A DNA stretch of 38,769 nucleotides from a virus (IMGVR_UViG_2778261204_000005:1-38769); one strand, 5' to 3'. Counted from the first letter of the stretch, positions 14,101 to 37,761 are shown. Program-made: numbers and translations. The notes: generated by a model from the sequence alone, not told the origin.

Positions 14101-14271
14101 GTGATTGACCCAAATCGAAGTTACGAACAAGAAAGCGTCGAGCGGGCTTTAACGTGCGCTAACTGCGGTCAGAAGCTGCATGTGCTGGAAGTTCATGTGT
14201 GTGAGCACTGCTGCGCAGAACTGATGAGCGATCCGAATAGCTCAATGTACGAGGAAGAAGACGATGAATGA
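14101..14271 (+). CDS. ninF: NinF-like small Cys-rich protein
   Basis: VIDPNRSYEQESVERALTCANCGQKLHVLEVHVCEHCC...; GTG start with GAGGA RBS preferred over upstream ATG at 14077. Confidence 0.55.
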   Translation: MIDPNRSYEQESVERALTCANCGQKLHVLEVHVCEHCCAELMSDPNSSMYEEEDDE

Positions 14272-14986
14272 GTTAATAAATGGCAATGCCATCAAAATGA
14301 CAAGCATTGAAATTGCTGAGTTGGTTGGTAAGCGTCATGACAATGTGAAACGTACCATCGAAACGCTGGCTAAAAATGGTGTTATCCGGCTTCCTCAAAT
14401 TGAGGTTTCCGAAAGAATCAATAACTTAGGGTTCAATGTTCAGTACGAGCATTACGTCTTCGAAGGCGAACAAGGTAAGCGAGATAGTATTGTTGTTGTT
14501 GCCCAGTTGTCACCAGAGTTCACCGCTCGCCTTGTTGACCGCTGGCGAGAGCTTGAAGAAGCTGCGGTTAATATCCCCAAAACGCTACCGGAAGCGTTGC
14601 GCCTTGCTGCTGACCTTGCTGAGCAGAAAATGCAACTGGAAAACCAGCTCGCAATTGCCGCACCTAAAGTTGAGTTTGCCGATCGCGTTGGCGAGGCCAG
14701 CGGAATTTTGATTGGAAACTTTGCAAAGGTTGTTGGAATTGGTCCAAACAAACTGTTTGCGTGGATGCGCGATCACAAAATCCTTATTGCTTCAGGTTCC
14801 CGGCGCAATGTGCCAATGCAGGAATATATGGATCGCGGCTATTTCACAGTGAAAGAAACAGCGGTCAACACAAATCACGGAATACAGATATCGTTCACCA
14901 CAAAAATCACCGGGCGTGGTCAACAGTGGCTGACCAGAAAGCTGCTCGATAACGGAATGCTGAAAGTAACAGGGGAGGCTGCTTAA
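14264..14986 (+). CDS. Rha-family phage regulatory protein / antirepressor with KilA-C-type C-terminal domain
   Basis: N-terminal Rha-like motif (TSIEIAELVGKRHDNVKRTIETL). Confidence 0.65.
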   Translation: MNELINGNAIKMTSIEIAELVGKRHDNVKRTIETLAKNGVIRLPQIEVSERINNLGFNVQYEHYVFEGEQGKRDSIVVVAQLSPEFTARLVDRWRELEEAAVNIPKTLPEALRLAADLAEQKMQLENQLAIAAPKVEFADRVGEASGILIGNFAKVVGIGPNKLFAWMRDHKILIASGSRRNVPMQEYMDRGYFTVKETAVNTNHGIQISFTTKITGRGQQWLTRKLLDNGMLKVTGEAA

Positions 14987-29844: not shown

Positions 29845-31239
29845 TTGGCTACATGGCAACAGGCTGGTAATTCAGGCGCGCTTCTTGCCGGGTTAGGCGG
29901 CATGAACTCCAACGCTCCAAGAGCAAGTGATGCAGACGCCACGCTTGCATACATTCGACAGAATAACGAGATGGAGCGTTCAGGACGTAATAACGTTGGC
30001 TTGCAGGCTTTGCAGGGCATTTCATCTGTCATGGATATGTATAAGCAGATGGATCAGCAGAAGCGACAGCAAGAGTTTCAGCAGGCTTATGCTGATGCAT
30101 ATACATCTGGTGACCGCGATGCAATGCGAAAACTGGCATCACAGTATCCTGAGCAGTTTGACGCTGTAAGAAACGGCATGAAATTTGTCGATGAAGACCA
30201 GCGTTCCACTGTCGGCACACTGGCAGCAAGTGCCAGACTGGCAGCTTCATCTCCAGAAGCCATGATGTCATGGTTGCAGAACAACTCATCTGAGCTTACT
30301 CGTGCCGGAGTAGATCCTCTGGATGTGGCGAAAATGTATCAGCAAAATCCACAAGGTTTCACAGAGTTTGTTGATCACCTTGGAATGGCTGCGCTTGGTC
30401 CAGAACAATATTTTCAGGCGCAAGACAGAATCGTTGGGCGTGAGATTGATCGCGGAAAACTTGCAGAGACAATCCGCAGCAATCAGGCTGGCGAGGCGCT
30501 AACAGCACGAGGTCAGAACATCACGATGCGCGGTCAGGATTTATCTGCTTCTACTGCGCGACGCGGGCAGGATTTGGCAATGCAGCGAGCGTCAACAAGA
30601 GGAACCACTGGGAGTGATGAGCGTACAGTTCAGTTATCAGATGGCAGAACTGTAACGGTTGGCGGGAAACTTCACGGCGCTGGGGCAAATGCGTTCTACG
30701 AAGGCATCGACAACGAGGGGAATATGGTTCGCGTTCCTGCCAGTTCAATCGCAGCGCCTGCAACATCGTCTGCATCAGCACAAAACTATGCCATGAAGAA
30801 GGATATCGACGCGATCGCAAATGCAGACGCTTCTGCTCTCGATTTCATGACAGGAATGACCGGCGGCGCAGGTAACCCGGCAATTGGTGCTGATGTTCGC
30901 AGCCGATTAACAGGAAAAGAGCAGCGCCAGTTATATAACTCAGCACAACGTATTCAGGGCAGAATGCAGAATCAGGGTGTGGCGGCAGCAAGGGACATGG
31001 GGGCCAGTGGTATTAACACCGTTGCAGAAGCGAAGATGTATTTTCAGGGGATGCCGCAGGTTGACTATTCAAGCCCGGAGGCTATGCAGCAGTCGATTCG
31101 TGAGATTCAGGAATACACCAACAATTACAACCAACAATATAACGTTAATGTTGGTAAATCTCAGCGGCAGCAATCTCAACCTGCACAGGTATCACAGCCA
31201 GCAGCCAGCAGTAACTTTTCTTCACTATGGGGTGATTAA
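29845..31239 (+). CDS. ejection protein gp20-type
   Basis: 464 aa, position. Confidence 0.65.
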
Positions 31240-33236
31240 TGGCTAAAGCATGGAAAGATGTTATCGCCTCTCCACAGTATCAGGCGTTAGCACCAGAACA
31301 AAAAGCGCAGGCTCAGGAGCAATACTTCAATGAAGTCGTGGCCCCGCAAGCCGGAGAAAATGCAGAGCAGGCTAAGCAAGCTTTCTATGCAGCCTATCCA
31401 TTGCCATCCGTGCAGCCAGTGGAGACACAGCAACCAGTAGCACAGCAACAACCACAGCAAAGTGGATTTATGTCTGATCTTGGCGAAGCAGTAAAAGAGA
31501 CTGGTCGCGGACTGGTGCAGGCTGGCGTGAACGTGGCAAACATACCTGCATCAGTTGCCGATGCTGTAACAAGCGCGGCGGCTTGGGCTGGCGGTAAACT
31601 CGGCATTGGCGATGGGACATATCAACCAGCGCCACGAGTAACAACGCAGGGATTAGAGCAGGACTTTGGCCTTCAGCAAGGCGCGCTGACTCCACAAACT
31701 ACAGAGGGCAGGGTATTTGCTGAGGCATTGCCTTACCTCACTCCTGCTGGCATTGAGAGAGCGGCAACACAGGCACCAACACTCGCTGGTAGAATCGCTC
31801 AGGGTGCAACTCGCCTTCTCGCTGAAAACGCAGTCGGGTCACTTGCTGCAAATAGTGCGAAAGATGATGCGGAAGCACTCGCTACCGATTTAGGCGTTGG
31901 CGTTCTGGCTGGCGGCGCTATTAACGCTGCCGGACGTGGATTAGGCGCTGCTTATCGTGGCGTTCGTGGTGCTATTGCACCAGAAGCGCAGCAGGCTATC
32001 AGATTTGCAGAGCGTGAAGGAATTCCTCTGCACACCACAGACCTGTTACAACCAACTTCCCGCGTCGGAAAAATGGCGCAGACTACAGCAGAAAATATCC
32101 CTCTGGCTGGCACAAGCGGAATGAGAGCAACGCAACAGGAAGCGAGAAGCCAGCTGGTGCAGAGATTTGCCGATAAATTCGGTGAGTATGATCCAGCGGT
32201 TGTTATTGACAGCCTTAAAGCGAAAACATCAGGAATTCGTCGTGCCGCCGGTAATCGACTGGAGCAGGTTCAGAATGCTATGGCTGGAGTAAACATTCAG
32301 CCTGCGCGAGCAATTCAGCAGATTGATACAGAAATATCTAATCTGCAGAAGCTTGGTAAGGTCGCTGATAACGAGACTATTTCAAAACTTCAGTCATATC
32401 GTGATGAGCTTGTTCGCAATGCTGGTCCTGATGGTCCGGTAAATCTGGACTTGAAGCAATTAAGCGATCTGCGCAGCCAGTTCAGAATGGACGTGAAGGG
32501 TGAGCGACCAGTGTTACCAAACCGTTCCGATGCCGCCATTCAGCGCGTTTACAAGGCGATGACCGACGATATCAATGGTGCCATTGGTCAGAATCTTGGC
32601 AACGATACTCTCCGTAAATATCAGCAGGCCAATGCCGTCTACGCTGACGAAGCGGCGAAACTCAAGAATACCAGGCTGAAGAATGTTCTCATGAAAGGCG
32701 ATCTGACGCCGGAAGTTGTCAACAACATGCTATTCAGCAAGAACAAATCTGAAATTAAGACGCTGTATAACTCAGTTGGTCGTGTTGGCAGGGCGCAAAT
32801 GCGCAATGGCATCATTGGAAAGGCGATGGAGAAATCTGGCGGATCCCCTGACCAGTTCCTTCGGCAGCTTAACATCCTGCAAAACCAGACTGGCATCACA
32901 TTTAAAGGTCAGGAAGCCGCTTATCTGAAAGGATTGAAAAACTACCTGCAATCCACGCAGCAGGCTGCAAAAGCGGCAGTAACAACACCAACAGGGCAGC
33001 AAACCATCCCGTTCATTATCGGATATGGGACAGCAATGAACCCTGCGACAACTGGCGCAGCGGTAAGCTACGGACTTCTTACTCGCGCCTATGAGAGCGA
33101 GCCATTCAGAAATGCAATGCTCCGAATGGCAAACACACCACGCGGATCAACAGCGTTTGAGAAAGCCATGCAGCATGCGCAAAAGGCCATTAACGCTCTG
33201 ACTCAGGGTGCCAAGTCTGATGCGTTGTCAGAATAG
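31239..33236 (+). CDS. ejection protein gp16-type
   Basis: 665 aa, position. Confidence 0.65.
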   Translation: MAKAWKDVIASPQYQALAPEQKAQAQEQYFNEVVAPQAGENAEQAKQAFYAAYPLPSVQPVETQQPVAQQQPQQSGFMSDLGEAVKETGRGLVQAGVNVANIPASVADAVTSAAAWAGGKLGIGDGTYQPAPRVTTQGLEQDFGLQQGALTPQTTEGRVFAEALPYLTPAGIERAATQAPTLAGRIAQGATRLLAENAVGSLAANSAKDDAEALATDLGVGVLAGGAINAAGRGLGAAYRGVRGAIAPEAQQAIRFAEREGIPLHTTDLLQPTSRVGKMAQTTAENIPLAGTSGMRATQQEARSQLVQRFADKFGEYDPAVVIDSLKAKTSGIRRAAGNRLEQVQNAMAGVNIQPARAIQQIDTEISNLQKLGKVADNETISKLQSYRDELVRNAGPDGPVNLDLKQLSDLRSQFRMDVKGERPVLPNRSDAAIQRVYKAMTDDINGAIGQNLGNDTLRKYQQANAVYADEAAKLKNTRLKNVLMKGDLTPEVVNNMLFSKNKSEIKTLYNSVGRVGRAQMRNGIIGKAMEKSGGSPDQFLRQLNILQNQTGITFKGQEAAYLKGLKNYLQSTQQAAKAAVTTPTGQQTIPFIIGYGTAMNPATTGAAVSYGLLTRAYESEPFRNAMLRMANTPRGSTAFEKAMQHAQKAINALTQGAKSDALSE

Positions 33237-33325
33237 CTTCGCAAACACCAGGAACGTGCAAAAACCAAATATGTAGAACGCAATATTCAGCATATCTCTT
33301 TGCATAAATCCTCCGTAACTGATGG

Positions 33326-33586
33326 TTAGCTGCTGTCTTTTTTATATAGCTCTTTGAGCGTATCAAAGACAATTTTCTTAACCATATCAGATTGTTGTTC
33401 TGCCATACGCTCTGCATCGTCAATGTAAACGGATGCAGAGCTTTGTTTAGCCAACGATTCTTCAATCGCTGCAATTATCTCTGAGTTCAGCGACCTGTTA
33501 TTCATCTTCGCACGCTGTTTAATTTTCGCGTGGAGTTCATGCGGAAGTCTCAAGTGAAACTGCGCCTCGTCGTATTTGCTGTACAT
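33326..33586 (-). CDS. mnt: Mnt-like ribbon-helix-helix repressor (Arc/MetJ family)
   Basis: FHLRLPHELHAKIKQRAKMNNRSLNSEIIAAIEESL and C-terminal DAERMAEQQSDMVKKIVFDTLKELYKK resemble P22 Mnt; start at internal ATG. Confidence 0.7.
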   Translation of the reverse strand: MYSKYDEAQFHLRLPHELHAKIKQRAKMNNRSLNSEIIAAIEESLAKQSSASVYIDDAERMAEQQSDMVKKIVFDTLKELYKKDSS

Positions 33587-33707
33587 CCTTGATGCCTCAC
33601 CAGTTGGGTGGAATGGCATCGTAACCTACTGGATAAATACTCAATAGTACCATTTCGGTATGCAATCACATCATGGTTGCATCATATCATTCGTCTGGAG
33701 CAATGAA

Positions 33708-35924
33708 ATGTCAGATATCACCGCCAATGTTGTGGTCAGCATGCCTTCGCAACTCTTCACTATGGCTCGTTCTTTTAAAGCCGTAGCCAATGGCAAAATT
33801 TATATCGGTAAAATTGACACTGACCCGGTAAATCCTGAAAACCAGATTCAGGTTTATGTGGAAAACGAAGACGGCTCTCACGTTCCTGTTTCGCAACCAA
33901 TCATCATTAACGCTGCTGGTTACCCTGTATATAATGGACAGATTACCAAGTTCGTAACTGAGCAAGGCCATTCTATGGCTGTTTATGATGCGTATGGGGC
34001 GCAGCAGTTTTATTTCCCTAATGTGCTGAAGTATGACCCTGATCAGTTCAGTCAGCAATTAGCTTCATTTGACCCTCCAGGAACAAACCTGATTGGTACC
34101 AAGGGCGGTGTTAATCTCACGCAATACCTTGATCGTGTATTCATGTTTATCGACGATCTGCCTGGCGTAGATAAGACGGGCGTTCTTGATAGCTCTGCAG
34201 CGCTAAACACCGCCATCACCACCTACAGCGGCGTGGGTGTGGAGTTTATTGGCAATCCATCCAGTACGTATCTCCTTACCGGCACCGTACAATGCATTGG
34301 AGTCAGTAATATCACGCTGAACTTCAATGGCGCGAAGATAATGGATAACGTCCAGGGTTTTATCCCAACTTCTGGTAACCGCGCAAACCACACTTTTGTA
34401 GTTTACAACGCTAAAAAAATTCGTATCACAAACTTTGTTTATGATGTAGCCCCCACCCGCGCCGACGCCACGTTAAGCAACCCGTCCGCACCGTCAACGG
34501 TAATGCTTTGGGTGGGGGGGCAATACCTTGGCAGTGCAATGACAAGTGATGTTGAAATAGATCGCATCTACAACGTGGAAAATAAGGGGCTCAATAACGG
34601 GTTCGTTATCTGCGGGATGGGTGAGCTCGACGGCATCCACGTACATGACTGCCTGATAAAAGGTGGCGCGTGGAAATTTGGTTGTAACTTCGAATACGGT
34701 CTTGCACCTGTAGACCCAGCAACTAATTCAACACTAACTAACGGCCTTCACCCGTACAATATCTACGTAGAGCGATTTAACGTTGAGAATGTTCCTACTT
34801 GCGACGGTTGGTGGCGTACAGCATCTTGTTATAATGCTAAGTTCATAAACTGCACCGCGTATAACACACGCTCTCCGATTTATGTCTATTCGGGGGATAG
34901 GGGGATAACACGATACTCGCAGAACGTAACATTTGAAAACGTAAAGACTAAATATAGTGATGATGTCACATACACCAATGCCAGTGTACAGGTTATTATC
35001 ACGGATAAAGATGGCTCTACGGGGGACACGCTGCCGTCATGGTCAAACTTCGACCATACGTTTATGTTTATAAACTGTGAAATCGGCTCCACTAGAGGAG
35101 CAAACTCCAGTTCATATCGTGTATTCGGCAACATGGGTAAGGTGCATGTCATAGGGGGTATTGTAGAGAACTCCTACTTTGGGGCGCACTGTCAACCATC
35201 GCTCAATCCGACATTCCTGTCTGATGGGGCTATTATTTTCGAAGGAGTAGTATTCAAAAATTGCTTCCAGTTCCTACGCATGGGCGGGGTAAAAGGCTGG
35301 CGTGTCGAAAATTGTACATTTAAACGACATTTATGGGGTTCCACTAGCGCGGCGCAAGTAGACCCAGCCGTATTTTTCAACGGTACAACTGGTCTTCTTA
35401 GGGGTAATACCTGGAACGCACTATCAACTGGTAGTGGGGCGACATGGTATCTTAATTGCCAATCTAGTACCATTCGCATGCGGGATAATGACTTCACGTG
35501 TCCGTCTGTTTATAACTTCCCGGTTATATGGTCGTCTGTGCTGCCGGTGTTAATCGGTAATGGTAACTTGTCCAATACCACATACCTTATTAGCCCCGAT
35601 GTTAACTCCCCGGCCATCTACGGTGAACCTTGTCCGTCCAAAACACTGGAGTCGATAACCGGGTCCGCAATTAACTTCAATATATCAAGTATTTGGACCG
35701 CTAGCGGGACTAAGACCATTAACTCCATCACCGGCGGCAAGCCAGGAGATAAAGTTATCATAAACCCGACGACGGGAGCGGCAAACGTCACATTTGAGTT
35801 TGGTACGGTCACCGGTGAAAACCGCATAGTTCCTCGTACCGTAGCCACCGAGGTAAAAACAGGCACGGGATGGTCAAAAACATTTATCAAGATGTCAGGA
35901 GCACAAGGATGGTGGGAAGTGTAG
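33708..35924 (+). CDS. tailspike protein: P22-type N-terminal head-binding domain fused to a distinct beta-helix receptor-binding domain
   Basis: [47 protein letters not shown] matches P22 gp9 N-terminus; remainder is G/N/T-rich; GGAG RBS. Confidence 0.85.
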
Positions 35925-35929
35925 AGCGT

Positions 35930-35953
35930 AAGGGGTGGGCACCCCTTATATTT
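35930..35953 (+). terminator. terminator-like hairpin after tailspike
   Basis: AAGGGG-loop-CCCCTT followed by AT-rich tract. Confidence 0.5.
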
Positions 35954-35998
35954 ACTTAGCCTGATACAAATCACCACCGTATCCGAACCACCATATAA

Positions 35999-36334
<336 letters not shown>

Positions 36335-36367
36335 CTCGGTGGCCAGTTTTTGTTGACCACTTCAGGA

Positions 36368-37525
36368 TCACTCTACCTTCCCATCAAGACAGTCTGCCCA
36401 CCACTGCATCATTTCTCTGCGTTTATCGAGATACTGAGCATGGTTGTAAATCCCGCGCACAGATCCGCCGTTGGCATGTGCCAGTTGCACTTCAATAGCA
36501 TCAGCAGGCCATTCGTGCTCGTTCATAATTGTGCTGAATTCATGCCTGAATCCGTGACCGCTTTCCAGACCCTCATAGCCGATTTGTTTGATCACAAGCA
36601 GCACCGCGTTCTCGCAGATCGGCTTCTTCTTATCGTTGCGCCCGGCAAAAACAAACTCTGATACTGGTTTGGTGATTGAGCTTAGCGTAGTGAGAAGTTC
36701 AACCACCTGGTCTGACATCGGGACCACATGAATTTTGCGTCCCTTCATCACACTGGCGTCAATGGTGATAATCCTGTTTTCAAAATCGACGTTCTTCCAT
36801 AGCATGGAACGAAGCTCTTTTGTTCTGAGGGCTGTGTAGCGTAAAACTTTGGTCGCAATGAGCGATACGATGCTTCCTGAAAATGTTGCCAGTGCTTTGT
36901 TGAATGCCGGGATCTGGTCTGCAGGAAGAAACGGGAAGTTCTTCTTGCGGTATCCCTTCATGGCGTCAGCAAGGTCAGGTGCCGGGTTATATTTAGCCCT
37001 ACCAGTAACAATAGCGTAACGGAAAACCTCGCCGCATCTTCTGCGTGCTTTGTTGGCTCGCTCCATTGCGCCGCGATCTTCAAATCTGCGGATTACTTCC
37101 AGCAGTTGCATCGGCTCAATATCCTGAATTTCAAGACCGCCGATGATGGGTAAAATGTCGTCATCAAACATTTTGGCAAGTTCAGTTGCATAGCCTACTG
37201 ACCAGACTTGCTTCTTGTGCTCGTACCATTCCTTGTAAATCGCACTAAATGAATTGTTGTTAGACGAAGCCTTTTTCGCCTTTACCGGATCGATGCCAAC
37301 CGAGATGTCTTTCCTCGCAGTCCATGCCTTATCCCTTGCTTCCTGCAAAGTCATAAGCGGATATTTTCCGACAGTCAGGATTTTCTCCTTACCGTCAATC
37401 TTGTAGCGAAGCTGCCATACCTTTTTCCCTGACACAGGGACATAAAGGTACAGGCCATTACCATCGAGAAGGCGGTATGGTTTTTCTTTCGGCTTTGCTG
37501 CTTCAATCTGCTTAACGGTGAGCAT
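36368..37525 (-). CDS. intS: tyrosine integrase, IntS (KplE1/CPS-53-type)
   Basis: Catalytic C-terminal region (HGFRHEF, HANGGSVRGIY); start set at ATG (MLTVKQIEAAKPKEKPYRL) to give the 385-aa length recalled for K-12 IntS; track ORF extends to 37561 from a GTG. Confidence 0.9.
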   Translation of the reverse strand: MLTVKQIEAAKPKEKPYRLLDGNGLYLYVPVSGKKVWQLRYKIDGKEKILTVGKYPLMTLQEARDKAWTARKDISVGIDPVKAKKASSNNNSFSAIYKEWYEHKKQVWSVGYATELAKMFDDDILPIIGGLEIQDIEPMQLLEVIRRFEDRGAMERANKARRRCGEVFRYAIVTGRAKYNPAPDLADAMKGYRKKNFPFLPADQIPAFNKALATFSGSIVSLIATKVLRYTALRTKELRSMLWKNVDFENRIITIDASVMKGRKIHVVPMSDQVVELLTTLSSITKPVSEFVFAGRNDKKKPICENAVLLVIKQIGYEGLESGHGFRHEFSTIMNEHEWPADAIEVQLAHANGGSVRGIYNHAQYLDKRREMMQWWADCLDGKVE

Positions 37526-37686
37526 GGGTAAAAATCCGGTGGGTAAAATTATTTTATCCACTTTTTACCCGTCATGGAGTGCGGCTGTCAACGATCTGAC
37601 GCGAACCATGACGAACTGTGAATCTACGGGAGGCTTGATATCCAGGGGATTTTGCGGACTGGTACGGATGGGAGCGAACTGATAAA

Positions 37687-37761
37687 TGGTGTCCCCTGCA
37701 GGAATCGAACCTGCAATTAGCCCTTAGGAGGGGCTCGTTATATCCATTTAACTAAGAGGAC
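37687..37761 (-). tRNA. argW: tRNA-Arg (anticodon CCU), argW-type; its 3' end is attR
   Basis: 75-nt cloverleaf read on minus strand: acceptor stem GTCCTCT/AGGGGAC, anticodon loop CT-CCT-AA, T-arm GGTTCGATTCC, 3' ACCA. Confidence 0.9.

Follow-up and report, generated by a model that had tools for sequence, protein, structure and literature searches.

An mnt gene without arc and ant, and its probable operator, beside the tailspike gene of a P22-like prophage

In bacteriophage P22 the leftward mnt gene is situated between gene 16 and the tailspike gene, gene 9, in an immI region that in its complete form consists of mnt, arc, ant and sar. The gene 16–gene 9 interval was named the "ant moron" by Villafane et al. 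(2008, PMC2629481), who described mnt-only versions in ST64T, ST104 and Para1 and considered that Mnt or Arc might affect tailspike levels. The phage L genome paper also describes an mnt-only ant moron and raises the question of its function (10.1101/2020.10.05.325894). Mnt is a classic model repressor, and it is under strong purifying selection in many P22-like prophages which do not have its only known target. Its retention beside the tailspike gene, with a matching operator, is a question left by the phage L and epsilon34 genome papers. The locus described here is at positions 33326–33707 of IMGVR_UViG_2778261204_000005, a stretch of 38,769 nucleotides (nt) that is referred to as the window and that is a P22-like (Lederbergvirus) prophage. 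The layout is of a known kind, the mnt-only ant moron, with many sequenced copies, and the window itself is one more copy of the junction sequenced in phages Sf101 and IME10. The cassette is read here as a minimal mnt-only ant moron, i.e. an mnt gene, a divergent promoter region and one cognate operator fused to the tailspike leader; taken together with the regulation proposed below, this reading is on balance probable. The features of the cassette are as follows.

33326–33586, minus strand: mnt, predicted to encode an 86 amino acid (aa) ribbon-helix-helix (RHH) repressor with the Mnt C-terminal tetramerisation domain (Pfam, PDB, tblastn).
33613–33641, plus strand: weak candidate for a rightward promoter, ATGGCA-17-AATACT, where P22 has Pant; its predicted start is at about 33648, on the operator (position weight matrix, PWM).
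33618–33644, minus strand: candidate leftward mnt promoter, homologue of P22 Pmnt, with -35 TTGAGT (33644–33639), -10 TACGAT (33623–33618) and a 15-bp spacer (alignment with P22 Pmnt, TTGAGA-17-TATCAT).
33648–33660, no strand assigned: probable Mnt operator TACCAtttCGGTA, within ATAGTACCATTTCGGTATG (position homologous to P22 Omnt, and covariation with the Mnt beta-strand).
33660–33682, plus strand: inverted repeat ATGCAA-N11-TTGCAT, i.e. ATGCAATCA-CATCA-TGGTTGCAT (inspection of the spacer).
33681–33714, minus strand: alternative leftward promoter candidates, ATTTCA-17-TATGAT with an upstream TG, and CTGACA-17-AATGAT (PWM scores 10.7 and 9.3 bits).
33697–33700, plus strand: tailspike Shine-Dalgarno sequence GGAG, within the conserved leader TTGCATC...TGGAGCAA, which is common to the P22, Sf6, Gally, VSe13 and L leaders.

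The P22 record places Omnt directly after the Pant -10 hexamer, and Pmnt overlaps Pant on the other strand; the P22 sequence at Pant and Omnt is TTGACA-17-TATATT-ctcaATAGGTCCACGGTGGACCT. Alignment of spacers shows that the mnt-proximal half of the window spacer is homologous to P22 Pmnt/Pant/Omnt, with ctcaATAGTACCATTTCGGTATG at the Omnt position. A repressor of the Mnt family is expected to bind a palindromic operator of about 17 bp in its divergent promoter region, and what the window has at the homologous position is palindrome-like. RHH proteins read DNA through a beta-strand. The base-reading residues of P22 Mnt are reportedly Arg2, His6, Asn8 and Arg10, as attributed to Knight and Sauer, and the predicted DNA-reading beta-strand of the window Mnt is QFHLR. 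In a survey of IMG/VR that covered the best 80 loci for each of three queries, approximately 240 in all, operator sequence and beta-strand residues covary and fall into three classes.

Mnt class HFNFR, e.g. P22: operator GGTCCAC-N-GTGGACC.
Mnt class QFNLR, e.g. L and Gally: operator AGACCAC-N-GTGGTC, with invariant arms, a centre base that can be A, C, G or T, and variable flanks.
Mnt class QFHLR, the window, VSe13 and JEP4: operator TACCnTTTnGGTA, GTACC(A/G)TTTC(G/T)GTAT, with a perfect TACCG-TTT-CGGTA in JEP4.

The site at 33648–33660 is probably the Mnt operator, and this covariation is the main evidence for placing the operator there and not at the inverted repeat of the tailspike leader. 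The core TACCAtttCGGTA has a single occurrence in the 38.8-kb window. In a search of the window for further Mnt targets, TACCNTTTNGGTA with up to one mismatch was found once only. An IMG/VR search with the pattern GTACCNTTTNGGTATG gave 120 stretches; 39 are linked to mnt, all with the operator facing the tailspike gene, and those without a link to mnt are mostly unrelated contigs.

The mnt sequence is under purifying selection. Its pN/pS ratio is 0.17 overall, 0.036 in codons 1–45, which comprise the DNA-binding domain, and 0.36 in the C-terminal part (43 distinct 86-codon alleles), and 79 of 80 related genes are intact. This purifying selection indicates that mnt is retained for some use rather than decaying, and the cassette is predicted to be functional. 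The context of the gene follows the Mnt class. Each of the 79 informative HFNFR loci has arc/ant beside mnt, with a near-consensus Pant, while Mnt of the QFNLR and QFHLR classes abuts the tailspike gene in 80/80 and 79/79 loci, respectively; a single old deletion, or a few of them, could account for this pattern. Where a complete immI is also present, the unit of mnt(QFHLR), operator and tailspike gene is still found. An example is locus L149 (7309–10420), from a CUS-3-like phage with a K1 endosialidase tailspike, where three Mnt-like genes are found in one ant moron. Two leftward mnt-like genes come first, followed by arc-ant-kilA rightward, then a leftward mnt(QFHLR) and its operator, and last the rightward tailspike gene.

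The open reading frame of mnt spans 33326–33619 in full (97 aa) before a start codon is chosen. It displays an Arc-like RHH domain (Pfam PF03869, E-value = 1e-14, residues 18–60 of the long open reading frame) and the Mnt tetramerisation (coiled-coil) domain (Repressor_Mnt, PF11423, E-value = 3e-14). PDB matches are to 1MNT, the N-terminal dimer of P22 Mnt (E-value = 3e-19), and to 1QEY, the tetramerisation domain (E-value = 2e-8), and identity with P22 Mnt is 49% by tblastn. As in P22, the gene is leftward between homologues of gene 16 and gene 9. The assignment as a true Mnt homologue that stands alone, without arc, ant and sieA, is supported. Translation most likely starts at ATG 33586 to give 86 aa, because the equivalent methionine (MYSKY) is where the VSe13, JEP4 and Gally homologues start. 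The long 97 aa form is rejected on the codon-position pattern of its 33-nt upstream extension, where none of 6 variable sites is at codon position 3, compared with 25 of 41 within mnt (42 related loci), and the 86 aa form is preferred. With this start, the spacer from mnt to the tailspike ATG at 33708 is 121 bp. The original prediction, of a leftward Mnt-like gene directly upstream of the tailspike gene with an interval of about 120 bp between them, is confirmed by these results, both Mnt domains having been found by Pfam and PDB.

No significant tblastn match to P22 Arc, Ant, SieA or Orf59a, to CUS-3 Ant or to JEP4 Rha/KilA was found across the whole window. Positions 32800–34200 gave no Rfam match to the sar antisense RNA or to any other known RNA family, and the arc-ant junction, which encodes sar, is also missing. 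There is no room for a further gene, since the distance from the ejection gene to mnt is 89 bp and that from mnt to the tailspike gene is 121 bp. Arc/ant, a strong Pant and sar, which belong to a complete immI, are all lacking. The proposed absence of arc and sieA is thus borne out. That of ant holds for the immI position and for a P22-type Ant but not for the prophage as a whole. A 240 aa protein with an N-terminal Rha domain and a C-terminal phage antirepressor ANT/KilAC domain (ANT E-value = 8e-33) is encoded at 14264–14986 on the plus strand, in the nin region, with a NinF-like gene on one side and a YbcO-like gene on the other and no Mnt-type operator in the vicinity. Antirepressor-family genes are therefore not missing from the prophage.

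The -35 and -10 hexamers of the Pmnt homologue are invariant in 42 related loci, with five variable positions between them; the corresponding hexamers in the L/Gally class are TTGAGG/TTGTGG-17-TAAGAT/TATGAT. On the rightward strand, Pant in the form TTGACA-17-TATATT (16.4 bits) is found in 71 of 71 P22-type loci, compared with 6.5 and 7.7 bits for the Q-type classes. The best rightward PWM score in the window is 7.7 bits. No strong tailspike-directed promoter was found in the spacer, where ATGGCA-17-AATACT is below the threshold of the consensus scan. That scan picked up CTGACA-17-AATGAT of the alternative leftward candidates. Relative to the VSe13 type, the window-type spacer has lost 2 bp ("AA"), so that the Pmnt spacing is 15 bp instead of 17 bp and ATGGCA and AATACT stand 17 bp apart; judging from the sequence, this loss may shift the promoter balance rightward. 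A second imperfect palindrome, GATGCC-N18-GGCATC with an inner CACC-N5-GGTG, is at 33591–33620, over the 5′ region of mnt; in P22 the Pant -35 occupies this place. The VSe13, JEP4, Gally and L junctions conserve the palindrome and P22 does not; it might form a hairpin in the mnt leader or be bound by some other factor.

In the proposed working of the cassette, the prophage-made Mnt tetramer would bind the operator at 33648–33660, as homology and covariation suggest. By analogy with P22, the operator would overlap the start (about 33648) of the weak Pant-derived promoter and abut the -35 of the leftward mnt promoter. Binding of Mnt would then stop residual rightward transcripts from entering the tailspike gene in the lysogen and would tune mnt expression. 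Lytic tailspike expression would come from read-through of the late operon across the antisense mnt gene; such read-through is expected because the stretch from the gp16-like gene to the tailspike gene has no terminator.

Among orphan-mnt cassettes, expression and deletion data exist only for that of the prophage Gally in E. coli LF82, where mnt is likewise divergent from the tailspike gene. It differs from the window in that its Mnt is of the QFNLR class and two extra expressed moron genes are upstream of mnt. In LB, mnt and the tailspike gene are at background (Misson et al. 2023, PMC9928086). Expression in macrophages is up 40-fold for mnt (log2FC 5.31) and about 21-fold for the tailspike gene (log2FC 4.42), and the injection gene just upstream stays at background (PMC9928086). 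These data show that transcription of the tailspike end in prophages of this kind can be independent of the late operon. They are not a demonstration that Mnt represses the tailspike gene, and the two moron genes of Gally could supply read-through into it.

Several observations weigh against the proposed regulation. The window operator is an imperfect palindrome (TACCA/CGGTA, 4/5 per arm), its right half-site is altered in 6 of 80 related loci, and the 3 × 80 loci surveyed are close relatives of three queries and not independent samples. The PWM score of the Pmnt homologue is only 5.3 bits, owing to its 15-bp spacer, and it is outscored by the leftward candidates to the right of the operator. 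If those leader promoters are real, which is speculative, the operator would be downstream of the start and Mnt would be a plain autorepressor. The rightward ATGGCA-17-AATACT is so weak that there may be nothing for Mnt to repress. In Gally, mnt and the tailspike gene rise together and not reciprocally, and the mnt-deletion lysogen survives normally, with no phenotype in the one assay done (PMC9928086). The suggestion that Mnt has been kept to regulate something, possibly the tailspike gene, is sustained in part. Purifying selection, an operator and a weak rightward promoter candidate that face the tailspike gene, and the co-induction in Gally are in its favor, but there is no strong promoter to repress and the inverted repeat is probably not the binding site. 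Control of tailspike expression by Mnt is possible.

The original prediction had noted the inverted repeat in the tailspike leader, and this repeat might be the site of such control. The repeat is real, overlaps the leader, and extends to 9-nt arms with one mismatch (ATGCAATCA/TGGTTGCAT) and a 5-nt loop. It abuts the probable operator by 1 nt and is present in all 121-bp-type junctions. The repeat is not above chance, however: when the 121-bp spacer is shuffled with its dinucleotides preserved, 41% of the shuffles have a perfect repeat whose arms are 6 bp or longer (loops of 3–20 nt permitted), and 18% have a 9-nt repeat with one mismatch. It is off the Omnt-homologous position, has no TACC/GGTA-type half-sites, and is the most variable stretch of the spacer, with 8 variants in 23 bp compared with 1 in the 13-bp operator among related loci. 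By spacer alignment it was not found in the VSe13, JEP4, Gally, L and Brookers junctions, even though the VSe13 and JEP4 Mnt have the same DNA-binding domain as the window Mnt. The repeat was rejected as the operator on account of its position, chance level, variability and lack in sister junctions. It is very probably not an Mnt binding site, and control of the tailspike gene in the lysogen by way of it is highly improbable. The same repeat might act without Mnt, by forming a hairpin in the tailspike mRNA, within its 5′ leader, with a part in stability, processing or translation control. The 9-bp stem has -9.4 kcal/mol on the plus strand compared with -6.6 on the minus strand, and five of six natural stem substitutions keep the plus-strand pairing (U-G or Watson-Crick), including U-G to C-G and U-G to U-A. 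Sf6 displays another hairpin of 7 bp (CCGGACA/TGTCCGG) around the same GGTTGCATC leader motif, just 5′ of the Shine-Dalgarno sequence. The fold of 33645–33720, however, gives a z value of only -1.16, and about half of transitions preserve pairing by chance, so that the substitution pattern corresponds to roughly p~0.1. No such hairpin is evident in the L/VSe13/Gally-type leaders, and no Rfam family matches it. A regulatory hairpin is considered unlikely, and in the proposed working of the cassette the repeat would be at most a small hairpin in the tailspike leader RNA.

Other explanations for the retention of mnt concern the protein, the transcript, or neither. Mnt could be kept to act in trans, shutting the antirepressor promoters of superinfecting or co-resident P22-like phages that have the same operator. 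This is the established role of Mnt in P22 (PMC2629481) and would account for the selection seen on mnt, and on its DNA-binding domain, where no ant is linked, yet no target is found. The operator faces the tailspike gene and never an ant promoter, both in the 79 loci with a QFHLR-type Mnt and in all mnt-linked pattern matches; where arc/ant/kilA are present, e.g. in L149, they are on the far side of mnt and under other Mnt-like repressors; and the operator occurs once in the window, where the nin-region Rha-ANT gene is without such a site. Immunity in trans is improbable. A leftward mnt transcript that runs into the 3′ end of the gp16-like gene could instead block the late genes of superinfecting relatives, with Mnt mainly regulating itself. 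There is a precedent in phage BTP1, where the prophage expresses STnc6030, a leftward antisense RNA of about 500–786 nt from the tailspike 5′ end to the injection-gene 3′ end (Owen et al. 2020, PMC7067206), and this RNA confers superinfection exclusion (PMC7067206). The window has the same ejection-gene/tailspike junction and the same leftward orientation, with no terminator after mnt and with leftward promoter candidates at the tailspike start, 33681–33714. But the BTP1 RNA is non-coding and no sequence similarity to it was found, BTP1 not being among the matches; in phages L and epsilon34 a terminator is annotated directly behind mnt; and strong purifying selection on the DNA-binding domain implies that the protein matters and not the RNA alone. 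Antisense exclusion is given a low probability. A functionless remnant, i.e. a cassette left behind when arc-ant was deleted, now in decay and carried along with the often exchanged tailspike head-binding region, would fit the degenerate Pant and the Gally mnt deletion without a phenotype (PMC9928086), and was held possible by the phage L authors (10.1101/2020.10.05.325894). It is at odds with a pN/pS of 0.036 in the DNA-binding domain, with 79 of 80 genes intact, with an operator palindrome kept amid diverged flanks, and with a layout that recurs in Escherichia, Shigella, Salmonella and Proteus phages; decay is very improbable.

In a wider reading, which is doubtful, the tailspike-adjacent Mnt lineages (QFHLR and QFNLR) would be a distinct conserved module for prophage-state transcription at the late-operon/tailspike junction, and not a decayed immI. 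If this were true, the module might gate condition-dependent expression of the tailspike, an O-antigen depolymerase, in lysogens, as hinted by the macrophage induction of Gally. Alternatively it might drive an antisense transcript that excludes superinfecting relatives in the manner of BTP1 STnc6030. Tailspike gating in lysogens, autoregulated antisense exclusion and immunity against other phages are the candidate roles of Mnt, and an answer could reveal a new prophage-expressed function. The covariation of operator and beta-strand provides ready specificity variants.

Compared with P22 immI, the window has the same leftward position of mnt between gene 16 and gene 9, a two-domain Mnt and an operator at the same position. 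It differs in being without arc, ant, sar, sieA and orf59a; its Pant -35/-10 is degenerate (7.7 vs 16.4 bits); its beta-strand and operator are QFHLR and TACCnTTTnGGTA, compared with HFNFR and GGTCCAC-N-GTGGACC; and the operator runs straight into the tailspike leader. The L/ST64T/ST104 ant morons also retain mnt as the sole immI gene, divergent from the tailspike gene across about 135 bp. Unlike the window, they have an extra small open reading frame (orf62), flanking terminators, a QFNLR Mnt, a perfect AGACCAC-N-GTGGTCT operator and a 17-bp Pmnt spacer. The E. coli/Shigella Lederbergviruses Sf101 and IME10 carry the mnt-spacer-tailspike junction of the window, 98% identical, together with its operator and inverted repeat. 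Sf101 differs in the gene that follows the tailspike gene, an O-acetyltransferase gene where the window has an IS3 remnant, and in annotating the long 97 aa open reading frame as "partition protein ATPase". Sf6 has in common with the window the gp16-like 3′ end with the following 72 nt, and the tailspike leader and start. It has no ant moron, and about 75 nt with a GC-rich hairpin are found where the window has the mnt cassette of about 0.38 kb.

Of 5426 complete E. coli genomes, at least 160 contain the junction with a coverage of 80% or more. Among the 79 IMG/VR loci with a QFHLR-type Mnt, the tailspike head-binding domain is divergently upstream in all 79, and the spacer is of the 121-bp type in 66 and of the VSe13 type (135 bp) in 4; the other 9 have an inserted HNH-AP2 gene. 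Independent versions of the mnt-tailspike junction are found in Gally, VSe13, JEP4, L/ST64T and the Proteus phage Brookers.

The window prophage is inserted at the tRNA-Arg(CCU) gene argW (37687–37761), with a gene for a cscB-like permease on one side and yfdC on the other. Its integrase is P4-type and IntS-like (36368–37561). The late operon is rightward, in the order gp20-like gene, gp16-like gene and, last, the tailspike gene. The features at its end are as follows.

29845–31239, plus strand: gp20-like ejection gene (Pfam Inj_translocase).
31239–33236, plus strand: gene for a gp16-like DNA ejection protein, the last late gene ahead of the mnt cassette (tblastn with P22 gp16, 33% identity, 573 aa, E-value = 1e-73).
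33237–33325, no strand assigned: 89-bp spacer from the ejection-gene stop to the mnt stop codon, without an intrinsic terminator on either strand.
33708–35924, plus strand: tailspike gene, 738 aa, with a P22-type head-binding N-terminal domain (Pfam Head_binding, E-value = 5e-66).

A scan of both strands at 33100–33900 gave no intrinsic terminator between the gp16-like gene and the tailspike gene. The gp16-like 3′ end and the following 72 nt are about 95% identical to Sf6. The identity after the ejection-gene stop (33237–33308, compared with Sf6 in L372, 301–372) is at the level of the coding sequence, and the Sf6 homology ends precisely at the start of the mnt cassette. Residues 1–113 of the tailspike are the P22 head-binding domain (Pfam), and residues 1–115 are 75% identical to P22 gp9 (tblastn). 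A 754 aa tailspike open reading frame from ATG 33660 was rejected as an artefact of an upstream in-frame ATG; the P22-type start, MSDIT, is at 33708 with the Shine-Dalgarno sequence GGAG. Between the tailspike gene and the integrase gene (35925–36367) the sole content is a truncated fragment of an IS3-family transposase (rve domains, open reading frame 36011–36334). Relatives have O-antigen modification genes at this position (O-acetyltransferase in Sf101, gtr in VSe13/L), and a serotype-conversion module seems to have been lost from the window prophage.

The HNH-AP2 gene is leftward, of about 180 aa and of the homing-endonuclease type (HNH and AP2-like), and is located just after tailspike codon 5 in the 9 loci of 79. 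The insert is 654 bp in L031, L040, L048, L051, L054 and L061, and 728 bp in L012, L045 and L074; an insert is also found in JEP4 (L004, 3200–3457) and Kapi1 (L089, 743–1243). The first tailspike codons (MSDIT...) are duplicated, and two unrelated insert types are found at the same point.

The palindrome TACCGAAACGGTA is found twice, 515 bp apart, in an unrelated type of phage with a GC content of 0.53–0.54 and with DNA methyltransferase and terminase genes nearby (L100 at 7579/8094, L107 at 2522/3037, L145 at 1016/1531 and L161 at 2615/3130). No RHH gene was found near the copies in the fetched flanks of the four contigs. Each copy is directly after a TATATA -10-like box and 5′ of a small gene.

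The label "partition protein ATPase" is given to mnt in the RefSeq records NC_027398 (Sf101), NC_002371 (P22), NC_011976 (epsilon34) and others, and the Sf101 paper does not mention an mnt gene. The label is evidently an annotation error that has spread over many Lederbergvirus genomes.

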